A stretch of 64,000 bases of DNA, taken from contig CAVSBO010000013.1 in NCBI GenBank assembly GCA_963726195.1, forward strand, positions 1-64,000. Direction: 5' to 3'. Origin of the DNA: Candidatus Thorarchaeota archaeon. Lineage in GTDB: Archaea > Asgardarchaeota > Thorarchaeia > Thorarchaeales > Thorarchaeaceae. Shown piece by piece: positions 51,076 to 55,261 of the stretch. Below the pieces are notes generated by a model. That model had not been told where the DNA came from. It did not search any database and saw nothing but the letters and a program-made list of their open reading frames with translations. Position numbers and translations under genes: made by a program. Within the stretch, counting starts at the first letter, position 1; each line of letters opens with the position of its first letter.

Positions 51076-52243
51076 ATGGTTGAAAGTACTCTTAGTGTGA
51101 TTAAAGCAGACGTCGGTTCTTTGGCTGGACACGTAATTGTACCTGATTTTATCATGGAGCTCGCTCGAAAGTGTCTGAAAGAGGGTGTTGACAAGAAAAT
51201 CATCAAAGACTTTCGAGTGGTGAACGCAGGTGACGATCTCGAGCTGATTATGACTCACCATCGCGGGGAGAACAGCGAGGATGTCCACAAGCTGAGCTTG
51301 GGATACCTTCATGAAATGCACTGAAAAAGCACGGGAGATGAAAATCTATGCAGCCGGGCAAGACATGCTTTCGGACTCATTCAGTGGCAACGTGAAGGGC
51401 ATGGGGCCCGGCTCTGCTGAGATGGCTGTAGAGGAAAGAAAGTCAGAGCCATTTGCAGTGTTCTGTGCTGACAAGACCGAGCCAGGTGCTTACAACCTTC
51501 CTCTATTCAGAATGTTTGCGGATCCGTTCAACACGGCCGGACTGGTAATCGACCCCAATCTTCACGAAGGTTTCAAGTTCGTCGTGCAGGACATCCTGAA
51601 ACAGGTTCCCACCTATGTGGAGTTGAAGTGCCCAGAAGAGATGTACGACCTTCTGGCTTTGATTGGGAGCACTGGTCATTATGTCATCAAGAGGATTTTC
51701 AGGCGTGACGGTATGATAGCCGCTTCCGTCAGCACCGACAAGCTGTCCCATATCGCTGGCAAGTATGTTGGCAAAGACGATCCAGTTGCGATTGTAAGAG
51801 CCCACTCAGGTCTGCCAGCAATGGGCGAGGTATTGGAAGCTTTCACTCTTCCGCACCTAGTATCGGGATGGATGCGAGGGTCCCATATAGGCCCACTTCT
51901 GCCAGTCGGCTTGAAAGACTCAAGGTGTACCAGGTTTGACGGTCCTCCGAGAGTAGTCTGTCTCGGCATTCAGGTCAGCAATGGTATGATTGTCGGCCCC
52001 GTGGATCTCTTCGACGATATTGCCTTCGACATCAGCAGGCGAAGAGGAATGGAAATCGCTGACTATCTGAGAAGGCACGGGCCGTTCATGCCACACAGAT
52101 TGAACGAGCACGACATGGAGTATACGACTCTGCCCAATGTACTGTCGAGGCTTGAGGGTCGTTTCACTGAGAATGATGGCATGGCTGGCAAAAGCACAAG
52201 CACAAAAAGCGCGAAGAAGCCGCACACAGACTCTGCCGAGTGA
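51076..52243 (+). CDS. fbp: Fructose-1,6-bisphosphate aldolase/phosphatase (+1 frameshift ~51294)
   Basis: KADVGS..GH, GDD, YAAGQDML, DKTEPGA, YVGKDDP, GWMRGSH. Confidence 0.97.
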
Positions 52244-52341
52244 GTCCTTCGTGATGGCTCAAGTCACCCTTCAGCCACTATCCGATGTGCTCGACAAGAG
52301 AATCACTGAGCAGAGTCGTAGTTCCGAATGTCTGGAGCGGC

Positions 52342-52632
52342 TTAGCCTGTGCGCTTTATGATATGGTATCCGAACTTGGTCTTGACAGGTTCGGTAGTCA
52401 TTTGGCCAGGACCCAAGGCGAATGCAGCTCGCTCAAATTCCGGGACCATCTTGCCCCTCTCAAACCAGCCGAGGTCTCCGCCTTTGCTCTTCGAGGGACA
52501 AGTGCTGAACTGCTTTGCCATGTCCGCGAAGCTTGCACCTTCGTTTATCTTCCTGATGATTTCCAAAGCTTGGCTCTGTTTCTCTACCAAGATGTGGCTA
52601 GCTTTCACTTTTCCTGCAGTGCTCTTGCTCAC
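52342..52632 (-). CDS. Parvulin-type peptidyl-prolyl isomerase
   Basis: [35 protein letters not shown]; SD GAGGTGA at 52645-52639. Confidence 0.95.
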
Positions 52633-52645
52633 GAGTATTCACCTC

Positions 52646-52711
52646 GCCGTTCATTGTAGAATGGACAAATCTAGACATAAGTCCTTTGTCCTCTCAGGAA
52701 CGGCACTGAGA
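52646..52711 (-). ncRNA. Putative omegaRNA 3' scaffold (H-type pseudoknot plus hairpin) overlapping the tnpB-like 3' end
   Basis: TCTCAG/CTGAGA stem; loop GCCGTTC pairs with GAACGGC; nested GGACAAA/TTTGTCC hairpin. Confidence 0.5.
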
Positions 52712-54814
52712 TTGCCGGAGTGAATTATGTTACGTGCCGCATTTATGTCTGCATGAATGTGCAAACCGCAATGTGGACAGTAGAAGTATTCCCCACCCTT
52801 CTTCTCAGTCATGGATTCTTTGCCATGGACTCGGAGCCCTCTCTCTTTACACACATGGCAGGTCTGAGAGGTCCATGCGGGGTTTACTGTCCACACGCTA
52901 TGCGGCGAATGACCAAGTGCCTGCCGCATGTACCTGATTCTGTCAATGGTCTGTCCCCACATGTTTGCGGTGAGAGCCCATGAAAGACCTTTGTACCCAC
53001 TCGGGGCTTCGTCAGCTCCTCAGATCCTCAAGGTAGAGCGTTTTGACGTTGTGCTCTTCGCAGAACCAAACAGTGTGTGAGGCGACAACCCGAGAGACCT
53101 CGCGGTCGAGACGACGGACCTTGTGCCAAAGAGCATCTAGGTTCCTTTCCTTCTTGAGGAGGGACGATGGATGCGACTGCCCCGGCCTCTTTGTCTCCCA
53201 GTTATTCATTTTGTGTTTGACTTCTCCTTGGAGGAATGAGGCTTGCCTTCTAAGGCGTTGCCTCTTACTCAAGAGAGGCTCCATTCTTACCAGCTGATCA
53301 GAGTATGTTTGGTCTTGTAGAACCGATAAAGCGACAGAGACCCTGAGCCCTCTGTCTGCCCCCGCAAGCGAATCGTATGTTTTGTTCTCAAGTCTCGGGA
53401 GGGCTTTCGTGTCGGGTGCGTGGAATGGTATCTGGAGTGTCACTCTGTGCCCCCGAATGAGAAGCTTGGGGGGAGCAGACCTACGGAGCTTCTTCAACTG
53501 TGAGACTTCTTTCTTAAGTTCCACGAGCTTCTCGGACTCTGAATCGCCTTTGCGCCTGATGTGCAGCTCGTGCGCCTTGTGCTGAAATTGGATGGTATTC
53601 ATGAGCTGCTCGTGCATATCTCGAAAGACGCAAGCTCTAAACTCAAGTCTCTCTGCTCTGTAGGGCAGATTTGAAGCCCTTGCCTGGTCCGCTTTGACAG
53701 TGTCCCCACGCGATGCCTGTGGAAGCCAGTTCAGAAAGCGAAATGTCAACGTTCGACAATCGCGTGTGGAATCGTCGATCCTCGTCCCGGCCATGCCACG
53801 AGGGAGCTTGATATGCAAAAGGACTTCGTTGTTCTTTTCGGTGTCTGATTCGAACCAGTAGCCTTGCCCGGTACTGTTCTCAGTAGAAGCCGAATAGTCG
53901 AGACTCGGGCTCTTGAAGCGTGGCGTAGTAGACTTGTATCCGTTCTTAGACCAAGAGTCGACCTTGTTGATGATAAGCGCCCGAATAGCATCTTTCTTAG
54001 GAGAAGGCTTGCTGAGGCCTCGTCTGACTCTCAACCTTTGCCCTACTCTTGTTCCCATTGGTTGTTCTAATTCAGAAATCACAACTTGGTCAAGTGCGCT
54101 TCTGAGTTGTCGGAGGACCGAGAGTGCATAATGATAGCCTGCGCCATTCTTTCGGACTAGTTCGCAACTATCTCGGACCTTGCGGATCAATCTTGCCACG
54201 ATCCATTTCTCACTCAGCAGCTGAATAGCATCCTCTTGTGAATCACAGAGAAGGCGAATAGCAGACGTGGTCAGCTGCCTTCTGATGTATTGGGAGAGAA
54301 TGATGCGGCCGGCCTCTTCCAACGCGTCCCTGTGGAGACGCTCAAATATGAGATTCTGGAATTCCTTATTTCCTTGGTAGCAGAGGTCGGTTTCCTTGCG
54401 AAGTAGGTTGTATGCTTCTCCCCTGTACAGTGAAAGTTCGTGTCCGATTTGTTCAGCACGTTGAGGACTGGTGTAGACTCTCTCAAGAATCAGGTTGACG
54501 ACATCCACGTATCGTTTCATGTATGATTCAAGGGTGTTGAGGTCCACAGTACCGACTTTGTTTCCCGCGACTTTCGTCAGAAGTGAGAGCCGATGTAGAG
54601 ACCGGCGGCTGTGCTTCTTCGAGAACGAGGGGTTTGGGCAGGAGCCAGACCCTTTGCGTATTACGACTCGATCTCGAGAATTGAGAATGAATGATTCAGT
54701 CAGAAAACTCCGGGTCGCATGCTCAGCGACTGATGACTCATTTATGAAGTTGTCATCAATCGTCTCCTGCTTTGTAGGCAGCCTGTGATGACACTGGGTT
54801 GTTTCTGTTGCCAC
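52651..54814 (-). CDS. tnpB: Large (~720 aa) TnpB/Cas12-like RuvC nuclease (+1 frameshift ~53013)
   Basis: RuvC-I GADRG, RuvC-II LEDL, VNPAWTSQTCHVC...CPHC Zn finger, RuvC-III HADINAARNI. Confidence 0.85.
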
Positions 54815-54836
54815 ATGCCAGCACTCTCTAAGAGTC

Positions 54837-54850
54837 TATGCTCGAGCATA
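54837..54850. promoter_or_regulatory. Perfect 14-bp palindrome TATGCTCGAGCATA in the tnpB/RHH divergent region
   Basis: Self-complementary; lies within an imperfect hairpin 54831-54857. Confidence 0.4.
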
Positions 54851-55024
54851 TATCTCCGTAAGTTATACAGACGTGCTGGGAACCTGCCATTAGACTATCT
54901 TTTCGACACCTACGACATGTAAAACAGTGACTGTGGACAGAATTGAGCGCATAATACGCAGATGAGCACCAGCGAATGACACCGGTTCTTTAGGACCTGA
55001 GCTTCCTTTGTTGTTCGGTGCAGA

Positions 55025-55261
55025 ATGAGAGTAGTCACGATATGCTTGCCAGAGTCCTATGTTGAAGGCATGGACGCTTTGATAAAGAAGGACATGTACC
55101 CAAGCCGATCAGAGGTCATTCGCATGGCCATAAGAGACATGTTGGTGGCAGAACTCTGGAAGGAGGAAAGGCCATCAGGTTTGCGTCCTATGCTAGGACG
55201 GGGCGAGCGGCCATCTGCAGTTCCCTTAGAGCGAGTATCTCCTATCGGGCAGTATAGGTAG
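55025..55261 (+). CDS. Ribbon-helix-helix (CopG/CdrS-like) regulator
   Basis: MRVVTICLPE...YPSRSEVIRMAIRDML. Confidence 0.9.
   Translation: MRVVTICLPESYVEGMDALIKKDMYPSRSEVIRMAIRDMLVAELWKEERPSGLRPMLGRGERPSAVPLERVSPIGQYR

Follow-up and report, generated by a model that had tools for sequence, protein, structure and literature searches.

The window, a stretch of 64,000 nucleotides from a Thorarchaeota genome, contains on its minus strand a tnpB gene (52651–54814) whose product reaches 720 amino acids once one spurious base is dropped, and which is followed by a transposon right end at 52647, 4 bp past the stop codon. The flanks are host genes, as the sequence-only reading of this DNA had described: a parvulin gene (52342–52632, minus strand, PF00639) lies 18 bp downstream, on the right flank, and a divergent RHH regulator (55025–55261, plus strand, PF01402) stands on the left, separated from tnpB by host intergenic DNA (54870–55024) which can be aligned to the empty sites of the congeners G002 and G003. 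The RHH protein is CdrS-like, as its best match is the haloarchaeal cell-division regulator CdrS (NF058555, E=1.4e-8, below the cut-off), and its gene is syntenic across the family.

It had been proposed that a frameshift, to be checked by short-read polishing, divides one 720-aa protein into the open reading frames 53012–54814 and 52651–52962. Deletion of a single base anywhere in 53012–53022 does fuse both into one open frame of that length, and the short-read contigs of three public runs from two studies (X1, X2 and X3), one of which may be the source sample of the window, have one base fewer at position 53013. One short-read contig is otherwise identical to the window and still lacks this base; another covers 52317–55247 with approximately 97% identity and represents a related strain. 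The agreement of the contigs across two studies shows that the reading frame of tnpB is intact and the base at 53013 an assembly error, which rules out a pseudogene with a real stop at 53012. Two of the three full-length paralogues in the genome are likewise frameshifted, and, compared with G002, the nearby FBPase gene (PF01950, 51034–52243) carries one inserted base near 51295 that splits it, probably also an assembly error; together these cases indicate that the assembly is prone to indels.

The RuvC acidic triad and the CxxC...CxxC finger that the sequence-only reading had recognised, with GADRG from residue 485, are all present in the restored frame. The RuvC-I aspartate is D487 (53354–53356), invariant in 66 of 66 homologues, and sequence and homologue alignment place the RuvC-II glutamate at E596 (53027–53029; LEDL at 595), its canonical position, and the RuvC-III aspartate at D689 (52747–52749; HADINAARNI at 687). 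The zinc finger of the TNB domain (52768–52860, CxxC at 652 and 679; all four features on the minus strand) has four invariant cysteines and belongs to the C-terminal part that matches PF07282 (E=2.5e-16), so that the D-E-D triad and four-cysteine finger of TnpB, the OMEGA nuclease, are complete in this protein. The N-terminal part matches OrfB_IS605 weakly. NF040570, a model built on proteins of approximately 390 aa, gave 61 bits against a cut-off of 100 (E=1e-16) over the C-terminal 210 aa only, NF038280 gave 28 bits against a cut-off of 350, and a search of the ESM Atlas returned generic TNB clusters only.

A predicted structure of the intact paralogue (pLDDT 76.5) has the WED-REC-WED-RuvC-TNB order of TnpB, with a REC domain of approximately 200 aa (89–291), a helical hairpin of approximately 80 aa in WED (364–444) and long helices after RuvC-I. 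Its best structural matches are AsCas12f1 (Z 18.5), Fanzor2 (14.5) and TnpB (14.2), all at 10–17% identity, so that the model carries the TnpB fold with Z of 14–18.5 to TnpB and Cas12f. We conclude that the locus holds a real, intact and unusually large gene for an RNA-guided DNA nuclease of the TnpB type, which by analogy would cleave DNA.

This gene is no orphan, as had been supposed: tblastn identified three further full-length paralogues in the genome, on contigs C16 (intact, 722 aa, 54% identity), C3 and C8, as well as 3′ fragments. All of these terminate in one and the same sequence of ~65 bp, and the right end at 52647 is common to about 26 other places. One 3′ fragment (G000:C13:118359–118725 and 119203–119382, L004) lies elsewhere on the window's contig, is 82% identical to the window protein and has its own right end beside a degenerate mini-element. 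Protein searches matched 249 clusters, of which the best 120 are mostly 620–760 aa; the roughly 250 relatives are typically about 710 aa long, and those with a named host are almost all from Thorarchaeota. Across 41 Asgard genomes, full-length or substantial matches occur in no family but that of the window, where they are patchy and often multi-copy. The first ~400 residues have no match outside the clade among 1.84 billion representatives, and in a tree of nuclease domains the clade is monophyletic (100/98) and stands apart from the ordinary TnpBs of the genome; a group of TnpB/Cas12-like proteins of 710–790 aa (P0190, P0216, P0219, P0223 and P0225) lies near it (support 90/87, not starred). 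The earlier suggestion of an expanded, catalytically intact clade of TnpB-type RNA-guided nucleases in an Asgard archaeon is thus borne out, its N-terminal expansions being found nowhere else.

Comparison across 157 loci revealed the full element from which such genes come: a left end, a serine TnpA, a convergent giant gene coding for 1,650–1,900 aa, a divergent tnpB and the right end, with complete relatives measuring about 8 kb. Upstream sequence of 1.5 kb or more is available for 71 distinct loci; of these, 49 have the giant gene, which in 43 cases is head-to-head with tnpB, 5 have only tnpA and 17 have neither. In L072, L152, L153, L160, L162, L174, L178 and L180 the giant gene is oriented like tnpA and tnpB, i.e. 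as inverted cargo. TnpA consists of a MerR-type HTH and a serine recombinase (174 and 168 bits against NF033518, cut-off 110) and is encoded directly inside the left end in the C3 element and in many relatives, while many other elements lack it. In agreement with what had been stated for the 64 kb, neither a Y1 transposase nor a CRISPR-like array was found in the 89%-complete genome, nor any Pfam Cas1, and its only serine transposase is the one on contig C3.

The insertion mode of this element can be read from two split host genes. On C3, an element of 8,147 bp interrupts a DNA methyltransferase; rejoining the halves at a single GG gives a protein of 294 aa which aligns without gaps to a 70% identical paralogue, and every other offset fails. 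On C8, a copy of 7,637 bp without tnpA splits an SDR gene, whose frame is restored by removing the copy and leaving one GG. The GG core without target-site duplication which characterises IS607 is thus seen in both restored genes, and points to TnpA, rather than to the Cas1-like giant protein described below, as the transposase. On the sequence evidence, we assign the TnpB clade to an IS607-family transposon of Thorarchaeota. About 20% of right ends terminate in CGA rather than CGG, and the nexus loop of the predicted RNA then often has a corresponding C-to-T change, which indicates that recombination core and pseudoknot co-vary.

The giant cargo protein (L002:3917–7588 and 2786–3724 on C3; L171:1242–6176; L142:4067–9748) occurs as two subtypes which are 24% identical. 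It combines a Cas1-like helical domain with a RecB-like domain, whose PD-(D/E)XK residues are invariant, and a RecA fold (Z 11.5) in which Walker A is degenerate; folding covered the part ahead of the C-terminal ~700 aa. Four Cas1 structures align to its first 170 aa with Z of 8.9–9.6 and rmsd of 3.1–3.9, and the Cas1-like residues E75, N112, N116, H170, D177 and D180 are nearly invariant. The link to Cas1 rests on fold and motifs, because a profile comparison with 11 Asgard Cas1 proteins was non-significant (E=0.22), albeit in the correct register; Pfam and PDB sequence searches gave no match to the giant, and the ESM Atlas only leads under 0.9. The same giant family also pairs with an unrelated second TnpB clade (~560 aa) in this genome: at G000:C16:216400–223600 a second giant stands head-to-head with such a TnpB, after which come GTCCACTCA and a tRNA-like gene. 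Weak Pfam Cas1 matches lie within frames of 1,325–1,367 aa in other Asgard genomes (G069:C5:121343–122176, G069:C4:342074–342907 and G084:C9:5285–6127), which would be further large Cas1 fusions.

The right end of the window copy coincides with a predicted omegaRNA scaffold of approximately 65 nt (52647–52711, minus strand) which overlaps the last 20 codons of tnpB and is supported by conservation and covariation. It is composed of the nexus and a second, long hairpin, an invariant AAT linker and a pseudoknot in which the nexus loop forms 6 bp with the terminal GAACGG. Over 85 distinct right ends, 90.3% of cells are paired and 15 of the 22 pairs show compensatory changes, a result reached in 0 of 500 shuffles, with slid controls at 31–44%. 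At the innermost pseudoknot pair, 92 of 108 copies have Watson-Crick pairing where 43 would be expected, a count inflated by relatedness among copies, with C-G, G-C and U-A forms all represented. The window scaffold retains all helices and has a compensatory U-A pair of its own in the nexus stem; single-strand folding, which cannot draw both, favours the pseudoknot helix over that stem. A longer omegaRNA overlapping RuvC-III was rejected, as variation at four-fold synonymous sites is free as far as the HADxNAA codons, from which we derive a conserved scaffold of only ~65 nt. An Rfam search over the locus gave no match at E<=1, and the region has no listed RNA holder, an absence that carries no information on expression.

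Conservation stops after the terminal GG in 108 copies, and the adjoining 20 nucleotides (52627–52646, minus strand), which carry the parvulin ribosome-binding site and start codon, are the same host sequence as at the empty sites and would be the guide. A structured right-end RNA with a nexus pseudoknot and a guide outside the end, as expected of a TnpB, is thus present. All 108 copies have a pyrimidine as the first base beyond the right end, and AGGG stands before 11 of 16 mini-elements and before both long elements. By analogy with the IS607 protein CboTnpB, which uses 5′-TGGG (10.1101/2023.11.20.567912), the predicted TAM is 5′-AGGG. The mini-elements themselves, 17 gene-less copies of about 185 bp (e.g. 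G000:C4:111630–111818 and C3:337528–337716), share the right end with its omegaRNA scaffold and carry both IS607 ends, the left end bearing the right-end repeats in inverted form and a TATA-like box, with a 5′ hairpin just past it; C3 harbours a back-to-back pair of them and C8 a tandem pair, and the congeners contain many more right-end matches. They are likely to be stand-alone omegaRNA cassettes that supply guides.

The window copy itself is a reduced version of this element, with neither left end, TnpA nor giant, and its neighbours are parvulin and the RHH regulator in place of a Cas1 homologue. Between the tnpB start and ~54870 no left end was found with a profile that detects degenerate ends elsewhere, and a left-end remnant seen by eye at the empty site of G002 gained no support from the same profile; the left junction can be located only to within 54815–54870. 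Only one of the two ends needed for IS607 mobility is therefore present, and with host DNA reaching up to ~54870 its excision as an IS607 unit is ruled out. It had been suggested that a single copy kept in synteny with parvulin and RHH would mark domestication, and dispersal a mobile gene; the order FBPase-parvulin-RHH-hypothetical-TPI recurs in synteny, but with no tnpB, in G002, G003 and about 20 further genomes of the family, and the gene is multi-copy, dispersed and non-syntenic, so that single-copy domestication in synteny was rejected. AGGG is absent at the empty sites of G002 and G003, and no empty allele from the same species was found in the contigs of four runs, which drop rare variants.

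Between the window and the 97% identical strain there are about 95 differences over 2.9 kb, and the spanning contig has no in-gene indel. The 29 in-gene differences listed, a small sample, comprise 18 synonymous and 11 non-synonymous changes (omega 0.18–0.25, p<=2e-4), and one substitution falls in the terminal pseudoknot strand (52650). The copy appears, from these comparisons, to be immobilised yet under purifying selection. With at most 55% identity to anything, the copy sits on a long terminal branch (0.81 versus a median of 0.13), whose length could in part reflect relaxed selection.

The aCas1 family reportedly comes from Makarova et al. (2020, CRISPR J). A large survey later described two Asgard groups of aCas1-associated TnpBs, Cas1H-Asgard-1 and -2, and guessed that aCas1 acts as the transposase (Altae-Tran 2023, PMC10691335). 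As in that description, the clade is Asgard-restricted, its named members being almost all Thorarchaeota, and in 49 of 71 loci has a divergent Cas1-like giant as its neighbour, within an element flanked by repeats; two unrelated TnpB clades with one giant family would correspond to the "two distinct groups". The differences are that the ends, GG core and tnpA are of IS607 type, that the window copy lacks the giant, and that the published downstream motif GTTCACTCA has 0 exact occurrences after 123 members of the window clade; PMC10691335 is silent on whether both groups have it. With one mismatch, the motif follows the other, ~560-aa clade, and the TnpB at C16:216–223 kb is probably the group described with it. 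By description, then, the window clade is quite probably the other Cas1H-Asgard group, and the "undescribed system" of the sequence-only reading has probably been catalogued already. Our literature search found no paper on TnpB in Thorarchaeota, and Cas1H-Asgard only in the 2023 survey.

Among characterised nucleases, the clade resembles the IS607 TnpBs of CboIStron and ISXfa1, with which it shares a serine TnpA, a GG core without target duplication, short inverted subterminal motifs and, as predicted, a G-rich target motif and a scaffold that ends in CGG and has a nexus pseudoknot (10.1101/2023.11.20.567912; PMC10711439). It differs in having no group I intron and in carrying a cargo gene of 5–6 kb. 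A set of 59 tested TnpBs are proteins of 353–550 aa, against 720 aa here, with measured scaffolds of 79–466 nt, against a conserved scaffold of ~65 nt (PMC10278001). AsCas12f1 (8dzj/7wju) is the best structural match (rmsd 4.4 over 365 residues), but identity is 14–15% and the clade has approximately 300 extra residues, in a larger REC and the WED hairpin, and in place of a CRISPR array or tracrRNA has a predicted RNA of the transposon end. We rejected a Cas12f or Cas12n identity, given that the assembly has no spaced-repeat array and that a transposon end adjoins the gene. Fanzor2 and pro-Fanzor (PMC10711439) are similarly associated with IS607 and larger than the usual TnpB; the clade has DRG (66 of 66) rather than DPG, and a canonical glutamate 56 residues ahead of the zinc finger rather than 6, and the published criteria exclude it from that group. 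The clade is accordingly neither a transition to Fanzor nor a Cas12. A TldR-like domesticated TnpB was also dismissed, as the RuvC triad is intact and single copy number and conserved synteny are wanting.

We consider it probable that this locus is a stranded selfish nuclease, kept by homing against empty alleles independently of a transposase and by use with the guides of mini-elements. An IS607 copy would have inserted at a GG core 14 bp ahead of the start codon of parvulin, and a later deletion would have removed the left end, tnpA and the giant gene. Transcription of tnpB would continue through the right end, and TnpB would trim the 5′ side of its own mRNA and bind the pseudoknotted ~65-nt omegaRNA with the flanking host DNA as guide. 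Double-stranded DNA with 5′-AGGG followed by a guide match, i.e. a version of the site free of insertion, would be cut, and the locus itself spared since its right end stands where the TAM would be. Repair of the break from the occupied copy would then keep or spread the insertion without a transposase, and TnpA-independent homing has been described (PMC13565253). The omegaRNAs of the 17 mini-elements would probably be loaded by the same TnpB, which would protect these elements in trans. Here we infer expression, processing, TAM, cleavage, homing and use in trans alike, with IS607 TnpBs as the model for TAM, cleavage and homing.

Loss of the left end, tnpA and giant, the long terminal branch, the family fragments that litter the genome and the substitution in the right end of the related strain would suit a remnant which was recently stranded, is without function and has simply not yet acquired disabling changes. 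We regard such decay as unlikely, as the ~95 differences in the related strain include no in-gene indel and show an excess of synonymous changes, and the scaffold has its own compensatory pair in the nexus stem. Immobility, apparent purifying selection and the same position in the 97% identical strain, together with host DNA to within ~55 bp of the tnpB start codon, could also reflect early domestication, in which an immobilised copy was captured behind a host promoter on the parvulin side and serves the host. It might then act as a defence nuclease with mini-element guides, or tune parvulin translation, because its guide would be the ribosome-binding site of parvulin and 3′ flanks stay on the omegaRNA, untrimmed by TnpB (PMC10278001). 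This is improbable, given that two congeners and ~20 family members have no insertion here, that RuvC is intact, unlike in TldR repressors, that solo copies are common in the family (17 of 71 loci) and that no TAM-flanked match to the guide exists elsewhere in the genome.

There is hardly more to be said for a transposon mobilised by aCas1, as guessed in PMC10691335, or for a TnpB that depends on the giant and, as a solo copy, needs it in trans. The frequency of the giant and its head-to-head arrangement with tnpB, the near invariance of its Cas1-like residues and the lack of tnpA in many elements would fit either reading. Nevertheless, many elements carry tnpA immediately within the left end, 5 loci have tnpA and tnpB and no giant, and the giant also partners an unrelated TnpB clade. 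Cas1 integrases and casposases duplicate their target, and the single GG core without duplication is instead the signature of a serine TnpA.

The stranded selfish nuclease would be of less consequence as a locus than as a member of its family, a sequence-isolated clade of ~710-aa TnpBs for which scaffold, guide boundary and TAM are predicted precisely enough for direct assay. The system appears to be of a known kind; what is new here would be an oversized, uncharacterised variant with a specified predicted RNA and target motif. The insertions at GG cores speak against the Asgard Cas1 homologue as the transposase, which the survey had guessed it to be, and if it is not, its travelling with an RNA-guided nuclease needs another reason. 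A Cas1-like integrase-nuclease together with an RNA-guided nuclease is the pairing thought to have given rise to CRISPR adaptation. It is a tentative idea, and one we would sooner doubt than adopt, that the clade represents an independent step from TnpB to Cas12 which retained the transposon: the protein would have gained ~300 residues while the scaffold, at ~65 nt, became shorter than the 59 measured, giving a 5′-AGGG-TAM nuclease fed by dozens of promoter-bearing mini-elements, for which a catalytically intact Cas1-like partner, not a transposase, may provide or position guides, with selection keeping the window copy, which lacks a left end, as a trans-acting nuclease. The clade would offer a natural example of protein growth accompanied by RNA shrinkage between TnpB and Cas12.
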